From the IMG/VR virus record IMGVR_UViG_3300043313_000558: DNA of 64,000 nucleotides, one strand, 5' to 3'. Below the pieces are notes generated by a model, which was not told the DNA's origin, ran no database searches, and saw only the letters and a list, made by a program, of their open reading frames with translations. Numbering within the stretch: position 1 is the stretch's first letter; every line of letters starts with the position of its first letter. This DNA is from a virus. Taxonomy: Duplodnaviria > Heunggongvirae > Uroviricota > Caudoviricetes. Positions 2,638 to 50,144 of this stretch are shown here, in pieces. The translations under genes and the position numbers were made by a program.

Positions 2638-4584
2638 CTACTTGCCCTTCTTCTTCGGCACGATCTTCTTCTTGGGTCCGACGGTCTTGGCGTTGGCCTG
2701 CTGCCGGGCCTGGGCTTCCTTGAGCTTGCCCAGGAACTTCTGACGGCGCAGGTCGGCGTCCTTGCCCTCCTGATCCCGCTTGAAGTCCTTCTCCTTGCCC
2801 TGCTGGTCGCGCTTGAAGTCGGCTTCCTTGCCCTTCTGGTCCCGCTCGTGGTCGACCTGCTTGAACTTGTTGTCGACCTCCTTGCCCTGAAGATCCAGCT
2901 CCTTGCCCTTCAGGTCCATCTCGTTGGTGGCCTGAGCGTTGGGGTCCTGGGCAGCCAGCGCCTGCATGTCGGCCTGGTGCTGCACCTCCATCGCCTGCTG
3001 CTGCTCCATCTGCGCCTGCTGGGAGCCCATCACCTCCGGGTCGACAGCGGCCCGTGCCTGCCCGCGAGCCTGGCCCACGGCCTCGTTCTCCATCTGGTCC
3101 TGGTGCGGGCTCTCAGAGGCCATCTGGGCCTGCTCTGGGGTCATCCCGCCTTGGACCATGCCGAACTTCTGGTTGGAGCCCATGAACTCCATCGCGGTCT
3201 GCTGCTGAGCCATCTCGCGCTTGGCCTCCAGCACCTCGTCCGGGATGGCAGGCAGGTGAGCGACCTCGCGCAGGAACTTCTCCATGTCCGGGTCGGGGAA
3301 GAACTGCATGCCCAGCCCGGCCATGGACGTCATGAACCCGGCCAGCTCGGCCAGGTTGGGCGGGTCCACATTGGTCGGACGCAGCTTGGGCAGCTCTTCC
3401 AGCTGCCAGTTGTTCAACTCGAACAGGCGGGGGATGGCGTGCCGGTTGAACACGTCCGCGATGGCCGTGGTGATGGAGTTCAGCGCAGAGCGGAAGATGC
3501 CGGTCTTGTCCACGTGCATCGCGTAGGAGCCGGTGCCCTCGTGGCCGAGCAGCAGGAAGTCGGCCATGGTGACCATCAACATCCGCTGCTCGTAGCGCTG
3601 GATCAGCTCGTTGGTGTTGAAGCTCTTACCGCCTGAGCTGCTCATCAGCTCGAAGCGGAAGAGCTCCTTGCCCTTCTCGTCGTACTCCAGGGGGAGAACA
3701 AGGCCCTCGTGTTCGTCGCGCCGAACGTTTTGGACCATTTTCTTGAAGCTCTTGTAGACCTTGTTCTCGTTGGTTCCCTCGGTCGCCTTCATGTACGAAG
3801 AAGGCAGCATGGCTACCGGCATGCCAGCGAGGTCACGCTCTACCCCGATCGCCTCGAACTCCTCTAGGCGCTTCTTGAAGAACCAGGGTCGGTACGCAGT
3901 ACGCAGGATCGAGGTGCCCTCGGGGTTGCCCTTGTGGATCCCGGTCCTAAAGAGCAGCGAGCGCTCGATCGGGATGACGCAGGTCTTGTAGTACGGGGGC
4001 GGGATCTGCACATAGGCCTTCACCCCTCCGCTCTCGTCGAAGACCCAGCGCAGGTGGGTCTCCTGAGCACGGATCGGGATCTTCCGCCAGCCGATCCGAC
4101 CGTCGGTGTACCGGCTGCGCTTCTTGGGGTCCTTCTCCTGCGGGCCGACCCGCTTCTTGTAGACGATCTCGTGCCAGGAGAAGCCGTAGACCAGCATCGA
4201 GAGGATCTCGGAGATCATGTCGTCCCAGGTGTGCGACATGTCCTCCATGCACTCTTCGACGAACTGGACCGCATCCGAGCTCTCCGGGGAGTTGTCGTCC
4301 CCGACCACGGTCCACTCGACCTGCCGGATCAGCTTCTCGATGGAGAACAGCATCGCCCCGATGATCGGGTCGTTCAGGGCCATCTCGCGGAACACCGCGA
4401 TGGCCTTGCGGCCGCGTAGCGCAGGCAGGAACTCCTCGTCGATCATCCCCGCAGCGCGCTTGACCCCGGTGACCCCGATCTCGGTCAGTGGGGAGACCCG
4501 AGTCGGCGCGGAATCCAGGTCGATGGTCAGGTCGTCGTAACGGGAGATGTCCCCGTAACGACCTTGGCCGGACGCGATGGTCAT
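2638..4584 (-). CDS. portal-like protein (648 aa) with highly charged repetitive C-terminal tail
   Basis: size, position downstream of terL in the transcription direction, acidic core and C-terminal D/K/E repeat region (DLKGKELDLQGKEVD..KRDQQGKEKDFKRDQEGKD) typical of portal barrel extensions; RBS acaggagg upstream; assignment is by inference only. Confidence 0.4.
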   Translation of the reverse strand: MTIASGQGRYGDISRYDDLTIDLDSAPTRVSPLTEIGVTGVKRAAGMIDEEFLPALRGRKAIAVFREMALNDPIIGAMLFSIEKLIRQVEWTVVGDDNSPESSDAVQFVEECMEDMSHTWDDMISEILSMLVYGFSWHEIVYKKRVGPQEKDPKKRSRYTDGRIGWRKIPIRAQETHLRWVFDESGGVKAYVQIPPPYYKTCVIPIERSLLFRTGIHKGNPEGTSILRTAYRPWFFKKRLEEFEAIGVERDLAGMPVAMLPSSYMKATEGTNENKVYKSFKKMVQNVRRDEHEGLVLPLEYDEKGKELFRFELMSSSGGKSFNTNELIQRYEQRMLMVTMADFLLLGHEGTGSYAMHVDKTGIFRSALNSITTAIADVFNRHAIPRLFELNNWQLEELPKLRPTNVDPPNLAELAGFMTSMAGLGMQFFPDPDMEKFLREVAHLPAIPDEVLEAKREMAQQQTAMEFMGSNQKFGMVQGGMTPEQAQMASESPHQDQMENEAVGQARGQARAAVDPEVMGSQQAQMEQQQAMEVQHQADMQALAAQDPNAQATNEMDLKGKELDLQGKEVDNKFKQVDHERDQKGKEADFKRDQQGKEKDFKRDQEGKDADLRRQKFLGKLKEAQARQQANAKTVGPKKKIVPKKKGK

Positions 4585-5377: not shown

Positions 5378-7405
5378 TCAGGTCCCTATGTCTTCGACGA
5401 CGAACTGTCCGGGTGAGGTGGCGCTGCCCTGCATGGTGATCACGCCGGTGCCCGAGGCCCGGGCGACGGAGACCTTGAGGACGTGTGAGCCCGCGGTGAA
5501 CTGGCCGATGTAGGTGGCGGTCATGTTGAAGGCGGTGGTCGCCGGTGCCTGGCTGATCGAGGAGACCAGCGAGGTAGCGCCATCACGCAGGATCAGCTGG
5601 ATTCGGTCACCGGCCACAGTGGTGATGAAGTTGGCCCACACGTTCAGCTTGTACCAGCGACCCGCCACACAGGTGATCGTCGTGGTCAGCCCCGCGATAT
5701 CCACCGGGGTGGTGCTGTTGGCGGTGTTGGCGGTGTTCGCGGTGATCTGGCCCATCCCCATGATCCCCAGCGGACGGTAGTCGACCTCGGCGACCTTGTT
5801 GTCCACGTAGTTCTTGGTGGTGGCGTGGTCGGGGTTGACCGGGTCGGCCATCCCGTAGATCTTCTGGCCGTTCATGTTGAAGCTGACCCCGACGGTGATG
5901 TCGCCCATCCCCGCTGGGTTGTAGTCCAGCTTGGTAGTGCGGATCTCGGTCTTGCTGAACGGGTCGGGCGTGCTGCCCCCACTACCGCCACTGAAGGCCA
6001 CCCAGGCGTTGGTCGTACCACCGACCCAGATGTAGCTCAGCCCGGTGTCGGTCTCGTAGATGATCAGACCGTCCTGGACGAAGGTTGGCCGAGTAGAGCT
6101 GGTCACCGTCCACACGTTGGCGGCGCTGTAGACCCACTTCAGCCCGTCCCAGATCGCCAGGGCACGCTGGTTCTGGTTGTAGTACAGCTGCCCAGCCCCA
6201 CGCGGAGTGGGGAAGGAGAACAGCCCGCCGGTGTCGACATGGGTCTGGCAGCGCCAGGTCTGGGAGTCGGTGCCCAGCGTGGCCACCGGGTCGGTCTGGG
6301 TGAAGATCTTCATGTAGCTGGTGGTGCCAGCCAGCACCTTGACCTTGGCACCCTGGGTGACCTTGGCTGCGGTGTTCGCATCGGTAGCCCGGCTCCAGGC
6401 TCCGGCAGCTGCGACGTAGATCCCGTTGTCGAACGCGTTGGTCTGGTTCTTGACCAGGATCCGTTCGGTGGCGCTGAAGGCGTAGCCGTCGATGGTCGAA
6501 GTGCCGGACAGGGTGATGTTGGCGGTGGTCGCACAGGCGACCGGGGCCAGGTACCGATCCCCGCTGGCGGTGAGCACTGTCCCGTTGATCGTGGCCCCGC
6601 TGGCGGCCAGCTGGGTGAAAGTGGCCGCACCGGCCTGGGTGATCCTGGCGACCTCAGTGCCCGCGTTCTTCCAGGACAGGTCGGTGTACAGGATGTTGGC
6701 CTGGTACTTGTCCACCGTCGGCATCTCGTTGCCGGTCATCGGTCGGTCCAGGGCCCACTCGATCTCGCCCACCTGAGCAGCAGCACCAGGAGGTGCGGTC
6801 AGGGTGAACTCCACCTCGGAGAGCTGGTAGAAGCTGTTGTAGGCCTTCTGGATCAGCTGGTCGGGGCTACGGCGCACCTCGTCGACCGTGTTCAGGGTGT
6901 GCCAGCCCAGCCCATGCGGGGCGTAGTTGCAGTAGACCCGCACGCTGACCGACTCGGTCCAGGACACGTAGTAGTGACTGACGATGAACCAGCCGTAGGG
7001 AAAGCCGTAGAAGAAGCCGTTGAAGTTGACGTTGAGGACCACGTAGTTGTTCGCCGCGATGGTGAAGCCGCCCTCGTAGTCCCCGTCGAAGAACTGGTCG
7101 ACCTGGGCGTTGGACAGAGTGCCGAGCAGGGTCCCGCCGTTGCGGTCGTAGATCTTGGCGGTGACGGTCCAGCGCTCCCGGGCCTTGAACATCGCGTCGT
7201 TGAGCGCGCTTTGGTACAGGTGTCGGCCACCGAACGGGTTGGCGTTCATCACCAGGTCATCGTTGGACAAGGTGGCGTACCAACCGTTGCCGTTGCTGAT
7301 GTAGTGCTTGCCGTCGGTGGTGTTGAAGTAGGTGCTTCCGGCAGGCGCGATGGCAGGCGCGGTGGCATAGCGCTGCGCCCCGGTGATGCCGTATCGCTGC
7401 GGCAT
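5378..7405 (-). CDS. tail fibre protein (675 aa)
   Basis: real start MPQRYGITGAQRYATAPAIAPAGSTYFNTTDG at 7405 (ATGA overlap with upstream stop); the first 163 codons of the listed 838-aa ORF are R/H-rich out-of-context read-through; shares YFNT[AT]D and TKNYVD motifs with 7405..8652. Confidence 0.6.
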   Translation of the reverse strand: MPQRYGITGAQRYATAPAIAPAGSTYFNTTDGKHYISNGNGWYATLSNDDLVMNANPFGGRHLYQSALNDAMFKARERWTVTAKIYDRNGGTLLGTLSNAQVDQFFDGDYEGGFTIAANNYVVLNVNFNGFFYGFPYGWFIVSHYYVSWTESVSVRVYCNYAPHGLGWHTLNTVDEVRRSPDQLIQKAYNSFYQLSEVEFTLTAPPGAAAQVGEIEWALDRPMTGNEMPTVDKYQANILYTDLSWKNAGTEVARITQAGAATFTQLAASGATINGTVLTASGDRYLAPVACATTANITLSGTSTIDGYAFSATERILVKNQTNAFDNGIYVAAAGAWSRATDANTAAKVTQGAKVKVLAGTTSYMKIFTQTDPVATLGTDSQTWRCQTHVDTGGLFSFPTPRGAGQLYYNQNQRALAIWDGLKWVYSAANVWTVTSSTRPTFVQDGLIIYETDTGLSYIWVGGTTNAWVAFSGGSGGSTPDPFSKTEIRTTKLDYNPAGMGDITVGVSFNMNGQKIYGMADPVNPDHATTKNYVDNKVAEVDYRPLGIMGMGQITANTANTANSTTPVDIAGLTTTITCVAGRWYKLNVWANFITTVAGDRIQLILRDGATSLVSSISQAPATTAFNMTATYIGQFTAGSHVLKVSVARASGTGVITMQGSATSPGQFVVEDIGT

Positions 7406-8652
7406 CAGCCCACCACCACGACCCGGTAGCCAGCGCCCAGGTTGGGGCTGTAGCGCAGCACGGCGGTGTTGACCGTGGTGGCATCCCAGTCGACCTCCAC
7501 CGCGGTGTACGGGGATGCCCCGTTGAGCACGGTCAGGGAGATGTCGCGGGTGTTCAGGTTGTGGGTGACCGTCTCCGGGCTTGCTGTTCCGCTCAGGCCT
7601 GCAGCGAACTTGCGAGCTCCAGCTGCAGCAGCGATTGCCGCGTTCATCGAGGTGATCGTCGGGATCACTGCGGTGTCCACGGCCACGGAGTCCGCGGCCA
7701 CGGTGATACCGGTGCCTGCCCCCACGTCGAAGGTGTTGGCTGAAAGGGTAAGGCCAGCACCCCCGACGTAGGTTGCCCCACCGGTACCGAACTGGGCATA
7801 GGTGAGGTTGGTGGTGTCGATGGTGATCGGCAGGTTGGTGGTGAGCACCCAGGCGGTGTCGGCCTGGGTAGAGCCCTCCTGCACGAACACACACATGCCC
7901 GCGATCTCGTTAGCGCTGTCCACGTCGGTGGCCCGGTACCAGGCCCCGGACTGAACCACCCAGATCCCGTTCTGGGAGGCGGTGCTCTGGTTCTTCACCA
8001 GCACCCGGTCCTGCACCACGGTGGTGACCCCGTCGATGGTCAGGAAGCCGCTCAGCGCGGTATTGGCCGTGGTGGCCACCCGCACGGCGTCCTTCCAGGC
8101 CAGGCCGAACACGGTGGCGTCCACATAGTTCTTGGTCGCTGCGTCGCTGGGCACGTTGGGCTCAGCCAGGTTGGTGATCTTCTTGGAGTTGAAGGACACG
8201 TCCACGGACGGCACGGCCAGGGCGCTCAGCGGGATGGTGGAGTGCGCGGACGCATCGTGCGCGGGAGTGCCGTGGGTGTGGTCGCTACGGGAGAGCGAGG
8301 AGGCAGAGCCGTTGGCTGAGGCCAGCCCATAGGTGGTCTCGGCGGTGACCGAGCCGAACGCGGGCATCCCGTGCTTGTGGTCCTCGCGGGCGAAGTTGGC
8401 CCCGGTGCCTACTGTCCCGCCATCACCGATCGCCTGGGTGGTCACGGTGGAGGCCGGGGTTGCTCCAGCACCCGCCTTGGCGGCAGTCCAGATCGGCCCG
8501 GTGGTGTTGGTGCAGCAGTACAGCGTGGCGTCGGCGGTGTTGAAGTAGATCTGCCCCAGGACGGGGCTGGCCGGGGCACTGGACAGGTTCTGCACCTGGG
8601 CTTGGCGCAGCTCGTTCTTGGACAGGTCTACGGCCCCGTAGAAGGTCGCCAT
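7405..8652 (-). CDS. tail fibre protein (415 aa), paralogue of 5378..7405
   Basis: N-terminus ..ASPVLGQIYFNTADATLY and ..SDAATKNYVDATV motifs shared with the neighbouring fibre gene; Ala/Thr/Gly-rich beta-type composition. Confidence 0.6.
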   Translation of the reverse strand: MATFYGAVDLSKNELRQAQVQNLSSAPASPVLGQIYFNTADATLYCCTNTTGPIWTAAKAGAGATPASTVTTQAIGDGGTVGTGANFAREDHKHGMPAFGSVTAETTYGLASANGSASSLSRSDHTHGTPAHDASAHSTIPLSALAVPSVDVSFNSKKITNLAEPNVPSDAATKNYVDATVFGLAWKDAVRVATTANTALSGFLTIDGVTTVVQDRVLVKNQSTASQNGIWVVQSGAWYRATDVDSANEIAGMCVFVQEGSTQADTAWVLTTNLPITIDTTNLTYAQFGTGGATYVGGAGLTLSANTFDVGAGTGITVAADSVAVDTAVIPTITSMNAAIAAAAGARKFAAGLSGTASPETVTHNLNTRDISLTVLNGASPYTAVEVDWDATTVNTAVLRYSPNLGAGYRVVVVG

Positions 8653-9517: not shown

Positions 9518-10099
9518 TTACTTGCGCTTGCCCCGACCACGCGGGTCCACGACCGGAGGCTCGCCCTCGACCGGGATCTCGTTGGGAAGGGTGTTGTCGG
9601 GGTGCTCACCCGGATTGCCACCACCAGAGCCAGGGAGGGTGTTGTCCGGGTGCTCTCCGCCACCGCCGGTCTGCGGGTCGTTGGCCTCGAAGCCCGAGGA
9701 GAGGTCATCGAGGCGCTGCTTGGCGCTGTCGATGGTGGACACCAGGGCCTCGGAGTTCGCGACCTGGGCCTCCAGGGCGGCGTTGAGCTCGGTGTTCTCC
9801 GAGGAAGCCGCTTCGAGGGCGTCACGGGTCTCCTGCAGGTTGCGCTCGGCTTCCTGCCGAACCTGGTCGAGCTCGGTGGTGATCGCCTGCTGCAGGCGGT
9901 TGATGGACTCGTTGAGCGGTGCCATGTACTTCTCCAGTTCTGTAGAAACGTGTCGTTCGATGTGCCGTACCGCGGCCCGGATAGCCCGCAGCGTTTCCTT
10001 GTGCATTGCCTTCATGCCCTGCTGTTCTAGCCAGCTGACCATCCGCTCTCCTTGCTCTTGTAGCCAGTCTCCCAGGGCCTGCACGTCAGCCCTGCGCAT
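9518..10099 (-). CDS. coiled-coil protein with Gly-rich C-terminal tandem repeat; possible fibre assembly/chaperone protein
   Basis: heptad-like ELEKYMAPLNESINRLQQAITTELDQVRQEAERNLQE region; C-terminus GEHPDNTLP repeated twice (48-bp DNA period at 9585-9658). Confidence 0.45.
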   Translation of the reverse strand: MRRADVQALGDWLQEQGERMVSWLEQQGMKAMHKETLRAIRAAVRHIERHVSTELEKYMAPLNESINRLQQAITTELDQVRQEAERNLQETRDALEAASSENTELNAALEAQVANSEALVSTIDSAKQRLDDLSSGFEANDPQTGGGGEHPDNTLPGSGGGNPGEHPDNTLPNEIPVEGEPPVVDPRGRGKRK

Positions 10100-14177: not shown

Positions 14178-14516
14178 TCACCTGGATGTGCCTCCACCAT
14201 CTGCTGGAACTCGTTGATGTTCACGTTCGGTGGTCGTCCCACTCGCTTCGGCTTGTAGTTCGCTCCTAGTACTTCCGGCATCCGTGTTCTCCTCTGGGAT
14301 CTTTGCTTCAAAATCCGCTTGACCTGCTACTTCGTCATTCAGAGCGCTTAGCTTTGCTGCATGAACAGCGACCTGAGCACAGGTCTGGCAGATCGGGAAC
14401 CGCGGAACCTCACCGAGGAGGGTGTACAGCACCTTGGCGGTGGACTTGAAGTTCTCCTTCTTCCACCCGCACAGCGTGGCCGGTCGGTAGTTGTAGCTGG
14501 TCCTACCGCTGCTCAT
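14178..14516 (-). CDS. hypothetical 112-aa protein with CxxC
   Basis: internal start MSSGRTSYNYRPATLCGWKK..FPICQTCAQ of the 14178..14651 ORF. Confidence 0.3.
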   Translation of the reverse strand: MSSGRTSYNYRPATLCGWKKENFKSTAKVLYTLLGEVPRFPICQTCAQVAVHAAKLSALNDEVAGQADFEAKIPEENTDAGSTRSELQAEASGTTTEREHQRVPADGGGTSR

Positions 14517-14821
14517 CACCTGGCCAGAGGACTGGACCCAGATACAGATGTGGGTGACCTTGGTGGTCTGAAGGTAGGCGACGCTCTCCGCCACGGTGCT
14601 CTCTTCCCGGCGGCTTACAGGCCTGCCTCTGCTTGGACGTCGCACCCACACTTGTAGAGCTTGTCACCGAGCTCCCTGGCCAGGATGGGCGTCATGGTCA
14701 GTTCCACCGCATCGATCTTCAAGACGACCTTTCCGCCCTGCTTTTCGATGGTTACTTCCTTACCTTCTCCCTGCGTTCCCACTGAACCTACCTCCTCGGT
14801 GCAAGGGTTGTCAAGCCTGGT

Positions 14822-20118: not shown

Positions 20119-20561
20119 CCGAGGTTGGCGTCGTAGCGCTGTCGGGAGATGACGTCCTCCTGGGTAAGTCGGCGAGAGCCAAGGTCACAGTGCTTGCGAG
20201 CGGCTTCGATGAACGCTCGTAGTGGGCCCACGCGGACTCGATAGTACGGGTCGGACTTCTTCACCGCCCCGGTCCCCTCGCCCTCATGGATCAGCGCGTC
20301 GATCTCCTGAGCTCGGGAGTAGTAGGCCACCGCGCACTCCATCAGGCCCAGGTATGGGCTGTCGATCGGTGGGTCTACTCGTCCGAGGAGGACGTTCCAG
20401 TACTCGTGGAGCTCTCCCAGAATCTCTGGTACGTCTGGAAGACCTGCGGGGAGAGGGACCGAGGTGAGTCGTTCGCCGAACTGGACATGCGAAGGATGAC
20501 GGACCTCGCCTGGACTGCCGGATACGACATCTTCGGGCAGCTTGATGCGAACGGACACCAT
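20115..20561 (-). CDS. hypothetical protein
   Basis: ORF 20115..20588; its 5' part overlaps the 3' end of the RecB-like gene in another frame, so the true start may lie near 20342. Confidence 0.3.
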   Translation of the reverse strand: MVSVRIKLPEDVVSGSPGEVRHPSHVQFGERLTSVPLPAGLPDVPEILGELHEYWNVLLGRVDPPIDSPYLGLMECAVAYYSRAQEIDALIHEGEGTGAVKKSDPYYRVRVGPLRAFIEAARKHCDLGSRRLTQEDVISRQRYDANLG

Positions 20562-21895: not shown

Positions 21896-24520
21896 CTAAC
21901 CTCCTACTAACGAGGCCATCGCCCCGGCGCTGTAGAGCACGGCGAGTTTGCCGATGCTCAGGTCCTTGTCCTCCAGGTAGGCGTAGACGCCGCTGACCTT
22001 TACGGGGTTGACCTTCTCGCAGAACTCATCGATGCTGCGATAGGGCTGAAAGGCCTCCACCTCCCGGGCTACCACCGGTCCGATCCCGTCGAGCGACAGA
22101 AGCCCCCTGCGGATAGCGCCGACGCTGTGGTCCACCGAGTAGGTGGCCCGGGAGCTGTTCACATCCGGCTTGAGCAGCTTGATCCCACGGTGCCGGGTGA
22201 CCCGCTGGTAGTGGGTCTCCTTGTCGGTGCCAGCGGCCACGGCCAGCAGCGCAGCGTGGAACTCCAGTGGGTGGTTCTTGATCAGCCAGGCGCAGTGGTA
22301 CGCGGTGATCCCGTACACGGTGGCGTGGGCCCGGTTGAACGAGTACTCGGCGAAGGCCTCCAGGGCCTTCCAAAGCCACTCCACGTCCCCGGCGGTCATT
22401 CCGGCCCTGTTGCACATTTTGGCCACGATCGGCTCATAGTGCTCCATCACCGCCTTGGCCCGCTCTACGCCCTTGTTGGAGGCCTTGACCGCCTTGAGGA
22501 AGGTGTTCAGGTCATCCGGGCTCATCCCCATCGAGCGCAGGATCTCGATCACCTGGTCCTGGTAGAGCAGGATGCCGAAGGTCTCGTTGGTGGCGTCGGC
22601 GATGATCTTGTGCCGCACTGGCAGTCGCTCGGTGCGGTTCTTGCGCTGCACGTAGGACTCCATCGCCCCGGAGTTCATCACCCCGGGCCGGAACAGGGCC
22701 ATCGCCGCGATCACGTCGCCGATCTTGGTCGGGTGCAGCCGCTTGATCTGTCGCTGGCTGGTGTAGCCCTCCAGTTGGAAGATGCCGTCCGTGTCCGCCG
22801 AGGCGATCATCGAGTAGGTGGCCCGGTCGGTGTACGGGATCCAGGACAGGCCCTCACCTGGATCCCGGCCCAGGTTCAGGATGGTCCGTCTCAGGACCGA
22901 GAGGGTCTTCACCCCGAGCACGTCCAGCTTGACCAGGCCGATCTCCTCTACGTCCTTCATGTCGTACTGGGTCACCCAGGTCTTGGACGAGGCGATCCAC
23001 TGCAGCGGCACGTACTTCTCTATGTCGGCCCGCGAGGAGGCCACCACCAGCCCTGCCGCGTGGGTGCCCGGCCCGGACACCAGGGACAGGGAGGAGAGCT
23101 GGTAGAGCAGCATCTTGTCCTCGGCGGTGGCGGTGGCCCAGTCCGCGCTGCCGGTGGTCTTGCGCTGCCGGGACAGGTACTTCACCCGCAGTGAGCCCTT
23201 ACCGGTGTCCCCGTCGATGCTGTAGGTCCCCCACGAGCAGATCTGGACCACCGCGTAGCGGGCCCCAATCCACTCCATCAGTTCCTTGCGTCGGTCGTGC
23301 TCGATGTCGATGTCGACGTCCGGGGGCTTGGTGCGGTCCTTGGTCAGAAAGCGGTCGAAGCGCAACTTCCAGGTCAGCGGGTCGTGGCTGGCGATCTTGA
23401 GCAGGTAGCAGACCAGTGAGCCCGCCGCACTGCCCCGGATCTGGAAGAACATCTTGACCTCACGCATGTGCTCACACACGTCGGCCACCATCAGCATGTA
23501 GTCGGCCATCCCGGCCGCCTTGATCACCGAGAGCTCTTCCTCCAGCCGGTCCTTGTAGACCTGCTTAGCAATCCCGAGAGCCTGGGCACACCGTGCCGCC
23601 AGTTCCACGTCGGGCAGCGGGTAGATCTGCGGGATCTTGAACTCGTAGGTGTCCATCTCCTCAATGGCCATGTCCCACTGGTTCAGCAGGCGTTGCAGAC
23701 CCGCGATCCCGGCCTCGAAGTGCTTGGGCTCGTGGTGCTCACGCATCCAGGCCTCGTCGACCATGTGGAAGCCGTCGCCGGGGAACTTGGCGTTGTCCGG
23801 CTCATCGGACCAGGAGACCAGTTCCTTGAGCGTGTCGTGGAACTCCTTCTCCTTCTCGTGCACGTAGTGGGAGTCCTGGGTGATCACCACCGGCAGGTTC
23901 AGTTCCCGGGCGATCCGGTACAGCAGACGGCAGATGGTCCGCTCGGACAGCCGCACATCGTGCTCGATGTTGTGGGCCTGGATCTCCACGTAGGTGTCGA
24001 ACCACAGGCTGAAGGTGGCCACCAGTTGCTTGGCCGCGGCGTAGCCGTCGTTGATCAGGGTCTGGATGACCATCCCGAAGTAACAGCCGGTGGTCAGTGC
24101 CAGGCCCTCGGTCTTCCCCTCCTGCGCCAGGTTGGCCAGGTCAGTCAGGTCCAGCAGTGGCCGGTGGTAGAAGTTGGCGTGGGAGAGCGTGGAGATCGCC
24201 ACCAGGTTGCGGTAGCCGGTCGTGGTGTAGGCCACCAGACCAGCGTGGTAGCGCTTCGCCTTCTTGTCGGCACGGTCCTTGACCAGGTACAACTCGGTCC
24301 CGGGCATCGGCTTGATGCCGACCTTCTTGCAGGCCTTGTAGAGCTGAACTGATGCGGCCATGTTGCCGTGATCGGTGATCGCCAAAGCGGGGTAGTGCAA
24401 GGCCGACGCCTGTGCCACCACTTCTGCCACCGATGGCAGCGCGTCGTTGAACGAGTACCGGCTGTGGGTGTGCAAAGAAAAGTAGCGGCTATTTGGCACG
24501 ATCCGTATCGACTGTGTCAT
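21896..24520 (-). CDS. dnaE: DNA polymerase III alpha subunit (DnaE-type) with N-terminal PHP domain
   Basis: HTHSRYSFNDALPSVAEVV..ALAITDHGNMAASV PHP motifs; 874 aa; C-family polymerase core layout. Confidence 0.8.
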   Translation of the reverse strand: MTQSIRIVPNSRYFSLHTHSRYSFNDALPSVAEVVAQASALHYPALAITDHGNMAASVQLYKACKKVGIKPMPGTELYLVKDRADKKAKRYHAGLVAYTTTGYRNLVAISTLSHANFYHRPLLDLTDLANLAQEGKTEGLALTTGCYFGMVIQTLINDGYAAAKQLVATFSLWFDTYVEIQAHNIEHDVRLSERTICRLLYRIARELNLPVVITQDSHYVHEKEKEFHDTLKELVSWSDEPDNAKFPGDGFHMVDEAWMREHHEPKHFEAGIAGLQRLLNQWDMAIEEMDTYEFKIPQIYPLPDVELAARCAQALGIAKQVYKDRLEEELSVIKAAGMADYMLMVADVCEHMREVKMFFQIRGSAAGSLVCYLLKIASHDPLTWKLRFDRFLTKDRTKPPDVDIDIEHDRRKELMEWIGARYAVVQICSWGTYSIDGDTGKGSLRVKYLSRQRKTTGSADWATATAEDKMLLYQLSSLSLVSGPGTHAAGLVVASSRADIEKYVPLQWIASSKTWVTQYDMKDVEEIGLVKLDVLGVKTLSVLRRTILNLGRDPGEGLSWIPYTDRATYSMIASADTDGIFQLEGYTSQRQIKRLHPTKIGDVIAAMALFRPGVMNSGAMESYVQRKNRTERLPVRHKIIADATNETFGILLYQDQVIEILRSMGMSPDDLNTFLKAVKASNKGVERAKAVMEHYEPIVAKMCNRAGMTAGDVEWLWKALEAFAEYSFNRAHATVYGITAYHCAWLIKNHPLEFHAALLAVAAGTDKETHYQRVTRHRGIKLLKPDVNSSRATYSVDHSVGAIRRGLLSLDGIGPVVAREVEAFQPYRSIDEFCEKVNPVKVSGVYAYLEDKDLSIGKLAVLYSAGAMASLVGG

Positions 24521-24555
24521 GCTGTGATCTCCAGGTTCAGAGCGCCTAGGACACG

Positions 24556-24587
24556 GAAGGCCCCCGGGTTGGTAGCCGGGGGCCTTC
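24556..24587 (-). terminator. GC hairpin between the 275-aa gene and dnaE
   Basis: gaaggcccccgg / ccgggggccttc 12-bp stem. Confidence 0.4.
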
Positions 24588-24598
24588 CCCTATGCCTT

Positions 24599-25426
24599 CT
24601 AGGACAGGGCGGCGACGAGCTGCTTGACCAGGTCGTCGTGGTCCTTGAAGGCGGGAACAGGGAGCTTCGCGATCCGGTAGACCTCGATGACCTCGTTCAC
24701 GTCCATTGCCTGGAGCTGTTCCATGGTGAGCTCCCGCTGACCCTCGTCCTGCTGGGCAGCGGGCTCAGAAGGGGGGTCGTCGGGGAACCTGTCCGCGTCC
24801 GCCATCGAGCGCGGCTTGTCCAGCGGCTTGAGGTAGCCCGCCGCCGTAATCGGCTCTTCCAGCCCGAACAGCTGACCACCTGAGTACTCCGGCTCGTCCG
24901 GCAGACCGCCCCAGACCTCCCGGAAGGCCTCCTTGAGCGCCTCCTGGTGGTCCTTGAGCTGGGTCTTGGCCTCGGTGAGGTCGGTGTCGGTCTTCTCCTC
25001 ACGGTCGATCGAGTACGAGGTCTTGTTGGCGACCTGGTCCTTGTAGATCGTGTAGGGCCGGTCCATGATCGTGCCGAACTTGTCGGACTGCCGCAGCAGG
25101 TCGTCGATCAGTGAGTACGGGATCTTGTAGAGGTCCACGTAGCCGGTCTCGGTGTTCAGCGCGTTGACGATGTAGCGCTTGGAGGCCTTGGCCTCGCGCT
25201 CGTTCTCGCTGTTGTGACCCGGGCAGGTCGGCCGGTCATCCGTGCACGGGTAGTCCCGGTTCTTGGTCTGGTTGAAGTGCATCCACACGCTGGTCCAGTC
25301 CTTGATCTCCTCCAGGAAGATCAGCGTGGTGGCCTTGTCCTTGAAGTACTTGATGTACGAGCCCTGGGAGCCGTTGGCCTCCGGGTCGTACGCAGGCTCT
25401 TGGGCCTGGGCAACACCGAACTGCAT
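24599..25426 (-). CDS. hypothetical 275-aa protein (possible ssDNA-binding/recombination accessory)
   Basis: internal start MQFGVAQAQEP; position within the replication module; CPGH motif; no definitive signature. Confidence 0.35.
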   Translation of the reverse strand: MQFGVAQAQEPAYDPEANGSQGSYIKYFKDKATTLIFLEEIKDWTSVWMHFNQTKNRDYPCTDDRPTCPGHNSENEREAKASKRYIVNALNTETGYVDLYKIPYSLIDDLLRQSDKFGTIMDRPYTIYKDQVANKTSYSIDREEKTDTDLTEAKTQLKDHQEALKEAFREVWGGLPDEPEYSGGQLFGLEEPITAAGYLKPLDKPRSMADADRFPDDPPSEPAAQQDEGQRELTMEQLQAMDVNEVIEVYRIAKLPVPAFKDHDDLVKQLVAALS

Positions 25427-25427
25427 G

Positions 25428-25739
25428 TCAGTCCTTTCGACGGGTGATCTTCGGGGTGAAGTAGTCCCGAAGCTCCTGAATGTCATCTGGGGTGTAGAGG
25501 TAGACCTTCATCTTGCCCTCCCAGACCTCGTGGGACGGGGCCTTCACCCTGCCCCGGTACATGGCCCGGCGGATCGTCATCTGGTCTTTCCCGAGGATGT
25601 CAGCGACCTCTGACAGGAGGTAATACTGCCCGTCCAGCGAGGACACCAGTCGGGCAGCGGGGGAGATGCCCCCGCCGGGCTGGTTGGTCCGCTTCACGAC
25701 TTCAGGAGTCGTCTGCGGCTCTGGTGCTGAATCGGACAC
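25428..25739 (-). CDS. helix-turn-helix DNA-binding protein
   Basis: YYLLSEVADILGKDQMTIRRAMYRG MerR/excisionase-like HTH. Confidence 0.45.
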   Translation of the reverse strand: MSDSAPEPQTTPEVVKRTNQPGGGISPAARLVSSLDGQYYLLSEVADILGKDQMTIRRAMYRGRVKAPSHEVWEGKMKVYLYTPDDIQELRDYFTPKITRRKD

Positions 25740-26142
25740 TGGGACGGTTCTTCCTCTCCGTGACGTGCTTGCCCACGGCGAACGGGTCGACCTCGCCGTG
25801 CTCCATACCCTCTTCGAGGGCTTTGCGGTCCAGAACGCGCTTGGTGAACTTCTCGTAGGTCTCCGTACCGAGCTCCTTCTCCAGGCCTACCTCGTCGATG
25901 ATCGGCGTGGTGGCCTGCAGAAACGTGGCGCGGTAGATCTTCCCGCCGTCCTGGACTTCGTGGGTCTTGATCTGCTGGGCCTCCATCTCGGCGGCCAGCG
26001 TCTTACGGACGGCTTCGAAGGCGTTCTGGGCGTCGGTCGCGGCCTGTTGCATCTCCGCGAACGACCCGACCAGCAGGTCCATCTTCAGCTTGGTGTTGTC
26101 GTCCATGACCCACACCCTGCCACCCTGGTCCACTCTTGTCAA
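25702..26142 (-). CDS. hypothetical 146-aa protein
   Basis: ORF; ATGA overlap with the primase stop. Confidence 0.35.
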   Translation of the reverse strand: MTRVDQGGRVWVMDDNTKLKMDLLVGSFAEMQQAATDAQNAFEAVRKTLAAEMEAQQIKTHEVQDGGKIYRATFLQATTPIIDEVGLEKELGTETYEKFTKRVLDRKALEEGMEHGEVDPFAVGKHVTERKNRPSVRFSTRAADDS

Positions 26143-26957
26143 GCGTAGGTCACTGCCAGGTGGTCGAACATCACCTTGCGGTCAGCGAGCGGGATCGCAG
26201 CCAGGTCCTTGTAGCCCTCCCAGACCAGGCGGTCCACCTTCACGTCGTGGCGCAGCACCTTGCGGACCTGCTCGGTGCCCGCGTGGCCCGCGTCGTCCTG
26301 GTCGTAGGCGACCAGCAGCACCTCCGGGTCGTAGGCCCGGATCAGGTCCGCCTGAGCCCGTGAGAGCCCGTTACGGAACGAGGCGACCGCGGAGGGCCAT
26401 CCGGCCTCCTCGGCTGCGATCGCGTCCGTAGCCCCCTCTGTGAGGATCAGGACGTCCCCCTCTGCCCGGTGCACGTTGTACAGGAAGCGGGAGATCGGCA
26501 CGTTGACCGGGTAGCGGTACTTGGGCCCGTGCCGAGAGAGCAGATCTCGACGGATCACCCCGTGCAGCTCCCCAGCCGGGTCCCGCACCGGGATGGTGGC
26601 AAACTGCCCGGTCATGTCCACCCCGAGCCGGTGGACCCGGCACAGCGCTCGGTTGAACCGGGAGAGCCAGTACTCCCCCGGTCCCAGCACGTCGTAGAAG
26701 TCCAGGTAGGACTCCGGCAGCGTTCGCACGTCCTCCTCCATCCGATCCAGCATGGAACGGACCGAGGCGGTGGCCTGAGCCGGAGTGAGCTCGGAGACCA
26801 GGTACTTCCCCTTGGCTCCGCACGCGTAGCAGAACCACAGTCCGGTCATCGAGTTAACGCTTGCCGAGGGGTTGGTGTCCCCGTGCACATGGCACCTGAA
26901 CTGCCGTTCCACCCCCTGGCCGTAGACCATCGCCTCAGCAAGTGAGCCGTAGCTCAT
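26139..26957 (-). CDS. DnaG-like DNA primase (zinc-binding + TOPRIM)
   Basis: CHVHGDTNPSASVNSMTGLWFCYACGAKG zinc ribbon; VLILTEGATDAIAAEEAGW and YDQDDAGHAG TOPRIM acidic motifs. Confidence 0.7.
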   Translation of the reverse strand: MSYGSLAEAMVYGQGVERQFRCHVHGDTNPSASVNSMTGLWFCYACGAKGKYLVSELTPAQATASVRSMLDRMEEDVRTLPESYLDFYDVLGPGEYWLSRFNRALCRVHRLGVDMTGQFATIPVRDPAGELHGVIRRDLLSRHGPKYRYPVNVPISRFLYNVHRAEGDVLILTEGATDAIAAEEAGWPSAVASFRNGLSRAQADLIRAYDPEVLLVAYDQDDAGHAGTEQVRKVLRHDVKVDRLVWEGYKDLAAIPLADRKVMFDHLAVTYA

Positions 26958-27081
26958 GCCACGACCTTGTCCAGCACGGCCTGACGGATCAGGTCCTGGA
27001 CTCGTTGATGATGCTCCTCCGCGGCGGCCCGGATGTCAGCGATTTCTTCCTCGGTGAAGAGGTCCTGGGTGTCGTCGGTGG

Positions 27082-28320
27082 TCATAGCCCGTCCTCGTCC
27101 CTGTCCTTGATCTCCTCCGCCTCGTCCTTGGTGATCTCGCGGAAGTCGCCGTGGTTGGCGTCGTAGAGGTTGAAGAACAGGTCACCGGAGGACCCGTGCC
27201 GGTTCTTCTCGATGGAGGACACCGCAGCGCCCTTGCCGAAACGCTTCATGGTGATCACCACGTCGCCGTCGTTGCCCAGGTGGTCGCTCTGGGCCAGGGT
27301 GTGCAGGGCTGGCGGACGCCACCGCACGCTCACTCCATCCCGGTTGATCTGGGAGGCGGCGATGATCGGGTGGTACTTGGCCAGACAGGTGGCTTTCAGC
27401 CCGTTGGAGATCTCGGCGATGATCCGGTAGTCCTTGATCGCAGGCAGGCCCTCGTCGTTGCGCATCAGCCCGACGTAGTCGATCACGGACAGGTCGAAGT
27501 CACCTGCGTGGCTGTTCACCAGGCCCGGGGTGACCAGCCCCATGGACATCTCGTGGATGTGCACCGAGCCGGGGACCTGCTCCTCGATGGACTGCAGCAA
27601 GTGCTTGTAGTCGGCGTGCGGCCAGGTCCGGCGCAGCATCGCGTTGGCATCGACCTTGTGCCCGAGGCGACGACCCAGCGCAGCGTGCAGACGGACCTGG
27701 GCCTGCCTGCGGGTCATCTCCAGCGAGTAGAAGACCACGCTCTTGCCGTGCACCGCCGCCTCGGCAGCCATGTCGAGCAGGAAGGAGGACTTGCCGTGGC
27801 CCTGCCGGGCGGCGAAGTACCACAGCTCACCGGCACCGATGCCGTTGGTCCGGGTCTCCAGCGAGTCCCAGGGGACCGGGATCCGGGGCTCTCGCACGTC
27901 CTCGTAGCCGTCCAGGAAGGCGTAGTCGACCAGGGCGTTGCCGGGCTTGGGGGATACCACGTTCATCTTGCAGTTCTCGAAGAGCTTGTAGGCCCCCTCC
28001 ACGTCGTCGCGGTCCAGGGCCATGGTGGCGTCACGCAGCCGTTGCTGCATCTTGCGGCGGTCGAACTTCATCCGGATCTCCCGGGCGGGCCAGCCTGCTG
28101 AGGCGTGGTCGGCCGCGTACGGGAAGGCCGGGAAGGCGGCCAGGAGTTGGGAGCCGGACGGACAGGTGCCGTACTGCCGGTAGTTGGTCAGCACCCACTC
28201 GTACTCGTTGCGGTGGCCGGTGAAGTGCTCGGGCCGCAGCCCGTAGGACTCCCCCAGACCGGGGTCGTTGCTGTTGACGATGGCGGAAATGAGCAGCGTT
28301 TCAGGAGTCGTCCGTGCCAT
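27082..28320 (-). CDS. dnaB: DnaB-family replicative helicase
   Basis: Walker A ARQGHGKSSFLLDMA; RecA-like C-terminal domain layout; conserved leader motif shared with dnaE. Confidence 0.75.
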   Translation of the reverse strand: MARTTPETLLISAIVNSNDPGLGESYGLRPEHFTGHRNEYEWVLTNYRQYGTCPSGSQLLAAFPAFPYAADHASAGWPAREIRMKFDRRKMQQRLRDATMALDRDDVEGAYKLFENCKMNVVSPKPGNALVDYAFLDGYEDVREPRIPVPWDSLETRTNGIGAGELWYFAARQGHGKSSFLLDMAAEAAVHGKSVVFYSLEMTRRQAQVRLHAALGRRLGHKVDANAMLRRTWPHADYKHLLQSIEEQVPGSVHIHEMSMGLVTPGLVNSHAGDFDLSVIDYVGLMRNDEGLPAIKDYRIIAEISNGLKATCLAKYHPIIAASQINRDGVSVRWRPPALHTLAQSDHLGNDGDVVITMKRFGKGAAVSSIEKNRHGSSGDLFFNLYDANHGDFREITKDEAEEIKDRDEDGL

Positions 28321-28353
28321 GCGGGGGTCCTTCCAGGTTCAGAGCGTCTGGCG

Positions 28354-28382
28354 AACCTAGCAGAGTTGCCTAGGGTTGACAA
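28354..28382 (-). promoter_or_regulatory. putative promoter upstream of dnaB (TTGTCA-17-TAGGTT on minus strand)
   Basis: plus-strand aaccta at 28354-28359 and tgacaa at 28377-28382 with 17-nt spacer. Confidence 0.3.
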
Positions 28383-28674
28383 TGGTCCGAACGGCCACAT
28401 CCTCGGGCCACACCCAGACCATCCGGGTCCTGCCCTGGACCTGCACTCCCCCGTTGTGCGGGCATGGCCAGGTGGTCTTGTGCCCACAGGTGGTACAGCG
28501 GGCATGGACCGAGGAGATCTGGCCGGAGAAGCAGGTCTTGCACAGGTAGGTGACCCGGAAGTAGGTGTCGTCGAGCTCACGAACAGGGCGGACGCGTCCG
28601 TCGTGCAGCTTGGGGCAGTCAGGGTGAGCGTGGACCGCGCCCTTGCGGAGCCGACCAGTGCCGTACCAGGTCAT
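28357..28674 (-). CDS. Cys-rich 105-aa protein
   Basis: internal start MTWYGTGRLRKGAVHAHPDCPKLH..CKTCFSG..CTTCGHKTTWPCPHNG. Confidence 0.35.
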   Translation of the reverse strand: MTWYGTGRLRKGAVHAHPDCPKLHDGRVRPVRELDDTYFRVTYLCKTCFSGQISSVHARCTTCGHKTTWPCPHNGGVQVQGRTRMVWVWPEDVAVRTIVNPRQLC

Positions 28675-28792: not shown

Positions 28793-29188
28793 TCAGGAGC
28801 CCCCGTCCGCGAGGACGGGGGCATAGAGGGCAGGGCGGTACGACTTCAGTCGGTGACAGTTGGAGCAGAGGGTCTGTAGGTTCTCGGCACGGTGGTCAGA
28901 CCGGTCGCCGTTGATATGGTCCAGGTCCATCTGACACAGGTCACCCACGAAGCCGCAGCGCACGCAGGTGTTGGTCTTGTGGTCCTTGAAGGTGTTGCCA
29001 GCGCGGTCACGGTTCATCCGCTGCTGGTGGGCTCGATAGGCCACGTCACACCGGTAGGTGTTCCCGTAGACCTTGATCTTCACCGGCCCATCCACCGCGC
29101 ACACCGCGGTGAGGGCCTCGAAGTCCTTGTTGGTCAGCTTGTGTACTTTGACTCCCATGGGGACATAGTACACCCCACCCAAACGCAA
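28793..29188 (-). CDS. HNH endonuclease
   Basis: CVRCGF..DLDHINGDRSDHRAENLQTLCSNCHRLK canonical H-N-H. Confidence 0.7.
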   Translation of the reverse strand: MRLGGVYYVPMGVKVHKLTNKDFEALTAVCAVDGPVKIKVYGNTYRCDVAYRAHQQRMNRDRAGNTFKDHKTNTCVRCGFVGDLCQMDLDHINGDRSDHRAENLQTLCSNCHRLKSYRPALYAPVLADGGS

Positions 29189-37116: not shown

Positions 37117-37183
37117 GGTGGTACTGCCTTTCTGGTGGGTACAGCAGAAGGGGCCCCAGCGGTTGCTGGGGCCCCGGTGGTGC

Positions 37184-37396: not shown

Positions 37397-37497
37397 GTGG
37401 TTGGAGCACAGGATCGAGATGTCGGTGTTGCGGCGCACGTTCTGAAGCGCGGTAGTAGACACGGTGCAGTGTCCTTTCTGGTGGTGGGCATGAAAAA

Positions 37498-37543
37498 GCG
37501 GGCGGAGCCGTGTGCGTCTCTCGCAGGACACAGCTCCGCCCGC
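37498..37543 (-). terminator. 11-bp-stem hairpin followed by T5 on the minus strand, directly downstream of a TATAAT box
   Basis: gcgggcggagc / gctccgcccgc; plus-strand gaaaaa at 37492-37497. Confidence 0.5.
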
Positions 37544-37547
37544 TCCT

Positions 37548-37615
37548 TCTATTATAGGGCATTTTTGAGCCTTTTACCAACTATTTGGCCCCTTTTTGCC
37601 CCCTTTTTGCCTCCT
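37548..37615 (-). promoter_or_regulatory. conserved promoter-like element copy 1 (TCAAAAATGCCCTATAATAG on minus strand) with upstream GGCAAAAAGGGG direct repeats
   Basis: plus-strand attata at 37551-37556; second copy with the same core at 55172-55216. Confidence 0.45.
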
Positions 37616-41907: not shown

Positions 41908-41955
41908 GTGCGTTGCCTTTCGGGCATAGGGAAAGCCCCGGCCAATGAACCGGGG

Positions 41956-50075: not shown

Positions 50076-50101
50076 TGTTTGCCTTTCGGTGCGAAAGGGA
50101 A

Positions 50102-50144
50102 GGCCGCCCCCAGGCCGGGGTCCAGTCGGGACCTGAGGGCGGCC
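50102..50144 (-). terminator. 8-bp GC stem hairpin between genes
   Basis: ggccgccc / gggcggcc. Confidence 0.35.

Follow-up and report, generated by a model that had tools for sequence, protein, structure and literature searches.

Do the two core replication genes of a phage share a regulatory site? The question is raised by a 64,000-nt stretch of DNA (the window) from the virus record IMGVR_UViG_3300043313_000558, assigned to the Caudoviricetes. Here the same 15-nt sequence, CGCTCTGAACCTGGA, stands just upstream of dnaE, which encodes a DNA polymerase III alpha protein, and of dnaB, which encodes a replicative helicase. In this phage, CGCTCTGAACCTGGA represents a short cis-regulatory site that has the core CGCTCTGAA(A)CC and lies immediately 5' of the Shine-Dalgarno sequence. 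Comparison with related genomes firmly indicates that the motif is a functional cis element specific to dnaB and dnaE.

The 15-mer and the two genes

The two copies and their genes are as follows; the sequence-only reading had already placed both copies here, and Pfam domains bear out its identification of the genes.

21896–24520, minus strand: dnaE-type DNA polymerase III alpha gene (Pfam PHP, DNA_pol3_alpha, finger and HHH_6 domains)
24529–24532, minus strand: likely Shine-Dalgarno sequence of dnaE (GGAG), overlapping the 3' end of the 15-mer by its first three bases
24530–24544, minus strand: motif copy 2, CGCTCTGAACCTGGA, dnaE leader, spanning -24 to -10 from the ATG
27082–28320, minus strand: dnaB-type replicative helicase gene (Pfam DnaB_C, E = 6e-26)
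28328–28334, minus strand: likely Shine-Dalgarno sequence of dnaB (GGAAGGA), overlapping the 3' end of the 15-mer by its first three bases
28332–28346, minus strand: motif copy 1, CGCTCTGAACCTGGA, dnaB leader, spanning -26 to -12 from the ATG

The gap between the 15-mer and the ATG is 9 nt at dnaE (ATG 24520) and 11 nt at dnaB (ATG 28320). The motif had been described as overlapping the putative ribosome-binding site. This is correct for the last 4–5 nt only, and the conserved core, CGCTCTGAACC at 24534–24544 in the dnaE copy, lies 5' of the Shine-Dalgarno sequence. The purine-rich element of dnaE itself differs among relatives (GGAG, GGGAGGG, AAGGGA, GGTGA, or none obvious).

No third match to CGCTCTGAACCTGGA with two or fewer mismatches is present in the 64-kb window. 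An exact 15-mer repeat carries little weight by itself, because the window holds 45 different repeated 15-mers, mostly in coding sequence and due to codon bias; a generic repeat finder likewise returned only codon-bias noise. The 15-mer is the longest string common to 91 forty-nucleotide upstream regions, the next longest being 12 nt. When the upstream regions were shuffled, a common 15-mer arose in 1 of 30 shuffles and a common string of at least 13 nt in 3 of 30. Judged within the window alone, the repeat is only moderately unlikely by chance, and the case therefore rests on related genomes.

A partial third copy, CGCTCTGAA(T), occurs at positions 14338–14346 on the minus strand in a probable small coding frame. 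The relative L081 reads CGCTCTGAAC at position 20177, a synonymous AAT/AAC difference from the window. In view of the coding frame and the synonymous change, this copy was rejected as a real site and is probably a chance match.

Conservation and concerted change in related genomes

A megablast search with the replication region gave zero matches to cultured phages. The nearest cultured phage homologues of DnaE are about 35% identical in protein searches; the dnaE of ChisanaKitsune, the phage with 35% identity, is translationally coupled and leaderless, and so is uninformative for the motif. Relatives were collected as a graded series of uncultured genomes by DnaE and DnaB protein searches, and 12 were examined. 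Nine of these have both leaders on the contig and make up, together with the window, a set of ten genomes (DnaE approximately 60–96% identical). The three further relatives end before dnaB, and only the dnaE leader is readable. The stretch read from each relative with both leaders was 5.6–23 kb. A scan of JGI metagenomes with DnaB yielded two loci, with leaders covered only in L087. The phages that share the motif form an uncultured family, probably with actinobacterial hosts.

L081: DnaE 96% identical to that of the window
L082: DnaE 76% identical
L085: DnaE 73% identical
L086: DnaE 71% identical
L083/L084: DnaE 68% identical
L209: DnaE 67% identical
L210, L211, L212: DnaE approximately 60–61% identical
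L087: DnaB 87% identical; from the JGI metagenome scan
L207: DnaB 64% identical; leaders similar to those of L082
L208: DnaB 62% identical

Each of the ten genomes with both leaders carries the motif once before dnaB and once before dnaE, always in the same orientation. The dnaE copy is found in 12 of 12 relatives and the dnaB copy in all nine with the dnaB start on the contig; no additional leader copy was found in the sequence read from those nine. Downstream of the core, TGGA(R) grades into the variable, purine-rich Shine-Dalgarno sequence. The 10–11-nt core match ends 14–16 nt before the dnaE start and 16–22 nt before the dnaB start, and the distance from the end of the 15-mer to the start codon is 9–11 nt in the window and 9–15 nt in the relatives. 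Flanking non-coding bases drift while the motif stays. L081 keeps the motif intact with a different 9–10-nt spacer before the dnaE ATG (tgaactcact in place of gatcacagc), and compensatory substitutions have altered the hairpin upstream of the dnaE copy.

The copies in a genome also vary together:

Window, L081, L087: dnaB copy CGCTCTGAACC, dnaE copy CGCTCTGAACC; GAACC variant at both
L082, L207: dnaB copy GCTCTGAAACC, dnaE copy GCTCTGAAACC; GAAACC variant at both
L210: dnaB copy CCACTCTGGACTGGA, dnaE copy CCACTCTGGACTGGA
L211: dnaB copy CGCTCTAAC, dnaE copy CGCTCTAAAC
L212: dnaB copy CGCTCGAACCG, dnaE copy CGCTCGAACCG

Three positions of the L210 variant depart from the window sequence, all of them in both copies. 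A permutation test on edit distances, with one representative for each of 7 lineages and 5040 dnaB/dnaE pairings, gave a mean distance between dnaB and dnaE sites of 1.9 in the same genome versus 4.6 in different genomes. Orthologous sites differ by 4.0–4.5 edits on average among the 7 lineages, and 4 of the 5040 pairings were as good as the true one. The comparison is firm grounds for regarding the motif as being under purifying selection, limited to two leaders and one orientation, with copies that co-evolve. Gene conversion is unlikely, since the flanks are unrelated and the repeat is only 15 nt long. The simplest reading of the concerted change, we infer, would be selection to fit one evolving partner. 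That the motif is specific to the two replication-gene leaders and is not a general ribosome-binding context, as the sequence-only reading had it, is upheld: the motif occurs only at dnaB and dnaE, its flanks diverge and its copies co-evolve. A motif scan of the 64-kb window and of 5.6–23 kb per relative did not find it before many unrelated genes at variable spacing.

A pattern scan of IMG/VR for the motif gave only single chance matches, none tied to dnaE or dnaB, and other DnaE relatives in IMG/VR, which are at most 49% identical, do not have the motif.

Members of this more distant clade (L002–L007, DnaE approximately 48% identical) lack CGCTCTGAA and have GGACGAGC before dnaB and (G/A)ACGA(G/C)C before dnaE, each about 20–40 nt upstream. 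The dnaB element is often in the loop of a small GTGTG/CACAC hairpin and is doubled in L002 and L007. These may represent an analogous shared element of different sequence. There is a possible shared (G/A)ACGAGC before both dnaB and dnaE in the relatives of 49% identity or less, a 7-mer that is too short to trust.

The dnaB leader

Upstream of the dnaB copy there is a conserved promoter-like sequence.

28354–28382, minus strand: predicted sigma-70-type promoter P_dnaB; hexamers and spacing kept in 10 genomes

P_dnaB consists of a -35 hexamer TTGTCA (28377–28382), a 17-nt spacer and a -10 hexamer TAGGTT (28354–28359). The ten genomes have TTGTCA, a spacer of 17 nt (18 in L212) that is variable in sequence, and TAGNNT. 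The -10 TAG doubles as the stop codon of the upstream open reading frame (ORF) in most genomes, and TTGTCA falls in the TLVNP codons of that ORF, where it uses T-ending codons (5% of third positions). In L212 the same promoter DNA is kept though the frame differs and no upstream ORF is called. P_dnaB has the properties of a sigma-70 promoter, i.e., a TTGACA-like -35, a TANNNT -10, a spacing of 16–18 nt and conservation that is independent of coding, and is predicted to be a genuine promoter of this type.

The core starts 7 nt past the -10 hexamer in 7 of the ten genomes and 5, 6 and 15 nt past it in the others. In the window the dnaB copy begins at about the predicted +1/+2. As the start of P_dnaB is predicted at this position, the motif would make up the first ~15 nt of the dnaB mRNA, in most cases preceded by one purine.

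A second promoter of the P_dnaB family (TTGACAACCC...TAGGTT) is at 14785–14814 of the window, minus strand, just past the terminase-like gene. It is kept in L081 (19710–19738), and the motif does not follow there.

The dnaE leader

A GC-rich hairpin precedes the dnaE copy.

24545–24554, minus strand: linker between the hairpin and motif copy 2, with a semi-conserved TCC(W)(R)GG (TCCTAGG in the window)
24555–24588, minus strand: GC-rich hairpin (GGAAGGCCCCCGG / CCGGGGGCCTTCC, 8-nt loop), located after the stop codon of the preceding ORF and before the dnaE motif

Consensus modeling of 13 genomes with RNAalifold shows a stem of 14 bp, in which 9 pairs have compensatory double changes. The linker varies from 2 to ~16 nt among relatives. 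The hairpin has the stable GC-rich stem-loop of an intrinsic terminator. No U-tract is present 3' of it in the window (GTGTCC), only L211 and L212 are moderately T-rich there, and a simple terminator scan of the window did not list the hairpin. It is best described as terminator-like, without a U-tract in the window. About 25 nt are conserved in the dnaE leader (GTCCWRGGCGCTCTGAAACCTGGAT). No -35/-10 pair is evident there in the window or the relatives, and L210 has no space for one.

The hexamer CCTAGG is rare in the window, with 6 sites (CTAG occurs 25 times in 64 kb), and two of the six (24545–24550 and 28369–28374) are within 30 nt upstream of the motif copies. The site at dnaB is in the promoter spacer and that at dnaE abuts the motif; relatives differ at this point (CCAAGG, CCTGG).

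RNA structure, partners and known families

A conserved RNA structure was one function proposed for the shared leader. Secondary structure modeling does not reveal one that includes the motif, which stays unpaired in the consensus fold and takes part in no recurrent structure in single-sequence folds; in the window and relatives, only the hairpin upstream of the dnaE copy is conserved as a structure. If transcribed, the motif is predicted to be single-stranded. A hairpin that would sequester the Shine-Dalgarno sequence (TCCNAGG/CCTGGA), suspected by eye, was discarded, being conserved neither at dnaB nor in relatives.

The window has no match to Rfam 15 at gathering thresholds, and positions 24300–28600 gave only chance-level matches. 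The best duplex of the motif with an antisense partner in the window (-26.1 kcal/mol) is inside the range obtained with shuffled motifs (-21.7 to -27.3 kcal/mol). No complementarity to actinobacterial 16S or rRNA-operon sequences, as the idea of an epsilon enhancer would have it, was found beyond the Shine-Dalgarno sequence.

Several known site types were rejected. Inspection did not show the partner elements that the ECF-sigma, LexA (Cheo-type box), DnaA-box, RecA-NDp and leaderless-promoter readings require. Loading of the Q/AlpA type was rejected as well, since its sites lie between -35 and -10 and require a -10-like pause element (PMC9371919).

Candidate trans-acting factors

Two small genes between the sites could encode a factor.

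25428–25697, minus strand: candidate factor, 89-aa (amino acid) MerR/Xis/BldC-like winged-helix protein, kept in all relatives
26954–27085, minus strand: weaker candidate factor, 43-aa ORF translationally coupled to dnaB, kept in all relatives

The 89-aa ORF has a sub-threshold match to Pfam HTH_17, and the L211 and L212 orthologues match the same family (weakly in L211). Its AlphaFold model (single sequence, pLDDT 72.5) matches the DNA-binding domains of RacA, MtaN, NmlR, BldC and Xis; the Foldseek matches have a probability of ~1.0 but E values of only 0.02–0.3. As a motif-binding factor this protein is a conjectural candidate only.

The 43-aa ORF overlaps the dnaB stop codon (ATGA), has orthologues of 40–46 aa and is doubled in L210. 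Its pattern LFT-EEExxDIxAAAEE-xxxxELIRQAVL recalls ribbon-helix-helix proteins, and there are sub-threshold Pfam matches to NikA-like and DUF6290. The single-sequence AlphaFold model is one long helix, and the ribbon-helix-helix fold is unconfirmed. PDB sequence and profile searches with both proteins gave nothing significant, and neither can be tied to the motif with the present sample of orthologues.

Interpretation of the shared motif

A shared operator on the mRNA, read by a lineage-specific factor, is tentatively favoured, at a probability somewhat below even. One sequence-specific and lineage-specific factor, most probably a phage-encoded protein, would read both copies on mRNA. Because the site abuts the ribosome-binding site, its occupancy would set the frequency at which ribosomes initiate on dnaB and dnaE. 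The output of helicase and polymerase would thereby be coupled, similar to the action of the T4 RegA or gp43 translational operators. Both copies are in the same place in the translation-initiation regions, just 5' of the Shine-Dalgarno sequence, which speaks for reading on the mRNA, as do the predicted accessibility of the motif and the T4 precedent. A translational operator lies within the translation-initiation region, and this is the position of the motif, assuming the predicted start site at dnaB. A DNA-level role at dnaE would be limited to that of a roadblock, because no promoter is present at this copy.

Several points weigh against a translational operator. At dnaB the distance from the -10 to the motif is better conserved than that from the motif to the start codon, and the conserved spacing would suit a DNA operator over +1 no less well. 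A conserved protein, predicted to be a MerR/Xis-like DNA-binding protein, is encoded in the operon. The dnaB core of L211 and L212 ends 21–22 nt before the start codon, at the edge of the ribosome footprint. The approximately seven independent lineages are a small sample, the dnaB transcription start and what the hairpin does are both only predicted, and the RNA-binding partner and the translational effect are putative.

That the dnaB copy is situated at the predicted start of a conserved promoter was missed in the sequence-only reading, and because it begins there, an operator on DNA is as legitimate a reading as a translational one. A phage protein, with the 89-aa winged-helix protein as leading candidate, would bind the double-stranded motif. 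Binding at +1 to +15 of P_dnaB would autorepress the operon, and at dnaE the bound protein would be a roadblock that limits read-through past the hairpin, as at the orientation-dependent stoperators of Cluster A mycobacteriophages. We rate this as the main rival, somewhat less probable than the operator on the mRNA. The motif is 7 nt past the -10 in 7 of 10 genomes and over the predicted start, the classic position for a repressor; the site is asymmetric, and the winged-helix gene is conserved within the operon. Small winged-helix proteins of the MerR/Xis type (BldC, excisionases) bind sites that are asymmetric or directly repeated. If the two sites co-evolve with a phage-encoded protein, their concerted change is expected. 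The recognition-helix region of the 89-aa protein diverges most where the motifs diverge most (L210, L211, L212), but this correlation is inseparable from overall divergence, and the fold match is weak (E 0.02–0.3, single-sequence model). The dnaE copy, moreover, has no promoter to regulate, a roadblock would not need a constant distance of 14–16 nt to the start codon, and there are two sites per genome as against 20–30 stoperators. If the motif is instead read in the nascent RNA as a boxA-like (nut-like) element, host NusB/NusE (S10), with or without a phage factor, would be recruited by CGCUCUGAA(A)C, polymerase from P_dnaB would read through the hairpin before dnaE, and the second copy would reload the complex; the probability of this is low. 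The first six bases, CGCUCU, are those of lambda boxA, an identity that was noticed after the fact. Some actinobacterial rrn leaders read CCGCTCCTTGAGAAC (L233, L310, L321), with which the core aligns with two small gaps. The geometry is also suggestive: copy 1 is at the predicted +1 of P_dnaB, directly after a promoter, the terminator-like hairpin is 3.7 kb downstream and copy 2 comes after it, so that there are two co-oriented copies per transcription unit and the order of hairpin and then boxA at dnaE is that of rrn; the site is predicted to be single-stranded. Yet boxA in 84 actinobacterial rrn leaders has YYTTGAGAACTCAA as its invariant part, neither the U-run nor the ACTCAA is present in the motif, and CTC is constant in the phages and variable in host boxA. 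The motif does not follow other promoters of the window (37551–37580; 14785–14814), and the ~9.7 kb past dnaE have no strong hairpin or gap, which leaves the second copy without an intrinsic terminator to overcome. In an extended form, a core that adjoins ribosome-binding sites would also tie translation of helicase and polymerase to the modified transcription complex, which is similarly improbable. A boxA mimic, if true, would be the first nut-like system described in an actinobacteriophage.

A leader that acts without a dedicated factor is another explanation to which little weight is given. Here the motif would be a translational enhancer or standby site, or a determinant of RNA stability or processing, read by the ribosome, S1 or RNases. 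Its location directly 5' of the Shine-Dalgarno sequence, in unstructured RNA, is consistent with this, and the dnaE leaders of L081 and L086 have no good Shine-Dalgarno sequence except the CCTGGA of the motif. However, complementarity to actinobacterial 16S or rRNA-operon sequence does not extend beyond the Shine-Dalgarno sequence, a general enhancer would be expected on more than two genes, and concerted lineage-specific change is unexpected if the host machinery is invariant, except where the hosts differ. RN|CNU, the RNase E pattern of mycobacteria, fits AACCU in the window and does not fit the L210, L211 and L212 variants. A promoter at dnaE is very improbable. The motif and the upstream TCCWRGG would be used by a phage-modified or phage-encoded polymerase or sigma factor, and the dnaB copy would be a tandem second promoter. 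The terminator-like hairpin directly upstream suggests a need to re-initiate, and the ~25 nt of GTCCWRGGCGCTCTGAAACCTGGAT are conserved; but neither a TANNNT nor a -35-like element is present, transcription from within the motif would give a leader of only ~10 nt, the L210 motif is ~3 nt past the hairpin with no room for upstream elements, TCCWRGG is absent at dnaB, and no RNA polymerase or sigma gene was found in the part of the window's ORFs that was scanned. Finally, a chance repeat or a favoured ribosome-binding context with no specific function is effectively refuted by the comparative data and has next to no probability. Exact 15-mers are frequent in this GC-rich window and 1 of 30 shuffles gave a shared one, but both orthologous positions are kept in all relatives while the flanks diverge, lineage variants are common to both copies (4/5040), and the motif is absent from the other ~90 gene starts.

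If the translational operator is the right reading, helicase and polymerase would be co-regulated via one small shared site that co-evolves with its partner, a compact case of coordinated control of replisome genes outside the T4 model. With two sites, two well-understood genes and natural variants (L210, L212), the motif offers a handle on the role of start-associated motifs in actinobacteriophages. No new principle is involved, operators and leader motifs of this sort being familiar from phages.

Comparison with known systems

Short asymmetric intergenic motifs near start codons, SAS and ESAS, have been described in Cluster K mycobacteriophages, where their function is not known (PMC3203893). 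SAS has a 13-bp consensus, GGGATAGGAGCCC, with an AGGAG core, 3–7 bp before start codons (PMC3203893). Microbacterium phages of Cluster EC have an 18-bp motif 21–30 bp upstream of start codons, and those of Cluster EF a SAS-like motif (PMC7302621). According to these papers the partner could be an RNA or a protein, of host or of phage origin (PMC3203893; PMC7302621). The dnaB/dnaE motif and these have in common that they are short (13–18 bp) and asymmetric, are found in small intergenic gaps among non-structural genes in one orientation, are at a short, largely fixed distance upstream of starts and are conserved within a phage group. It differs from SAS in sequence, with no similarity and no AGGAG core in CGCTCTGAA(A)CCTGGA, and in position: SAS is on the ribosome-binding site, whereas the dnaB/dnaE core is 5' of it, 14–22 nt from the start. 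Motifs of the SAS type have 5–20 copies on assorted genes (SAS itself about 10–20 per genome, on genes of many families), in contrast to two copies only, and, unlike SAS, one copy of the dnaB/dnaE motif coincides with a predicted transcription start. By these comparisons the motif is of a SAS-like kind and is not a member of the SAS, EC or EF families by sequence, copy number or exact position. It is set apart by restriction to replisome genes, coincidence with a predicted transcription start and co-variation of the copies.

Stoperators of Cluster A phages (L5 gp71) are asymmetric 13-bp protein-binding DNA sites, located at a promoter and also in short intergenic gaps within transcription units. 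Their orientation is that of transcription; they co-evolve with the phage repressor, number 20–30 copies spread over the genome and belong to a temperate immunity system. The motif is likewise asymmetric, with no conserved dyad, and co-oriented, with one site at the predicted P_dnaB +1 and one inside the operon; it differs in having two sites and a different sequence. A contrast between SAS and stoperators is mentioned in PMC3203893. No integrase or immunity repressor was found in the part of the window's ORFs that was scanned.

In T4 the gene for RegA belongs to the replication gene cluster, and the protein binds unstructured sites that coincide with the AUG or lie immediately 5' of it; the gp43 operator combines a hairpin with a sequence overlapping the ribosome-binding site (PMC3014915). 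Like these operators, the motif is a cis site in the translation-initiation regions of replication-gene mRNAs. The gp43 layout, i.e., an upstream hairpin and a single-stranded sequence that reaches the ribosome-binding site, resembles the dnaE leader. Sequences and proteins are not related: no homologue of RegA or of another known translational repressor was noticed, and the polymerase is of the DnaE type and not family B. RegA sites are A/U-rich, degenerate and present on ~30 mRNAs, whereas the dnaB/dnaE motif is on two, and the 14-bp GC stem at dnaE is terminator-like, unlike the gp43 operator.

In rrn operons boxA is present in both leader and spacer, and lambda has nutL and nutR. The lambda boxA is 5'-CGCUCUUA-3', with cgcucuuaaaaa in nutL and UGCUCUUUA in rrn (PMC2724277). 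As with the boxA of lambda and rrn, the motif would be linear single-stranded RNA just past a promoter, in two co-oriented copies and with a hairpin nearby. Unlike boxA, it has no U-run and A, is a poor match to the actinobacterial rrn sequence TTGAGAACTCAA and abuts the ribosome-binding site.

Other features of the window and its relatives

The window is a phage genome segment of 63% GC with nearly all genes on the minus strand. Its products include a WhiB homologue and a tape-measure, a portal and a terminase-like protein. Approximately four tandem 33-nt units of 11 codons each are present at positions 2757–2934, within the 3' part of the portal-like gene (2638–4584, minus strand).

Free-standing HNH and Endonuclease_7 genes differ in place around the replication genes among relatives, which suggests mobile homing-endonuclease insertions. 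One HNH gene of the window is just upstream of the dnaB promoter region.

Window: 28793–29188, minus strand, free-standing HNH/Endonuclease_7 gene
L082: 4963–5280, 8413–8841, 16616–16915 and 19031–19528, genes of the same kind
L207: 9179–9550, gene of the same kind

The most distant relatives that bear the motif, L211 (at 7086–7606) and L212 (at 9757–10001), have a replication-module architecture unlike that of the window. Genes upstream of dnaB are on the opposite strand. In L212, dnaB opens a divergent transcription unit; in L211 a 115-aa ORF followed by dnaB opens one.

The sequence-only reading also pointed to a different leader, CCACCAGAAAGG, before several other genes. Two exact copies are present, at 37127–37138 (10 nt before ATG 37116) and 37473–37484 (10 nt before GTG 37461); the sequence does not precede 34318, 36487 or 37396 as had been claimed. 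The leaders before 34318 and 36487 are only loosely similar and A/C-rich. Matches to CCACCAGAAAGG with two or fewer mismatches number 9, versus 6.9 expected, which is the chance level. As its AGAAAGG part is complementary to the 16S 3' end (...CCTCCTTTCT) and the other cited sites are only loosely similar, CCACCAGAAAGG is mainly an extended Shine-Dalgarno sequence in A/C-rich early leaders.

A strong sigma-70-like promoter, TTGGTA-18-TATAAT, is at 37551–37580 on the minus strand; the motif does not follow it. Within about 10 nt of this promoter follows a canonical terminator-like hairpin with a T5 tract, GCGGGCGGAGC...GCTCCGCCCGC TTTTT (37493–37543), followed by the leader CCCACCAGAAAGG and then GTG 37461. 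The region 37493–37580, minus strand, looks like a promoter-proximal attenuator on an early operon.

Positions 50076–50110 and 41908–41940, both minus strand, display a common leader layout and an 11-mer, with a GC hairpin, ...CCCT(T/A)T..CCGAAAGGCAA... and an ATG. In the leader at 50076–50110, CCTTTC could pair with the GAAAGG of the Shine-Dalgarno sequence.

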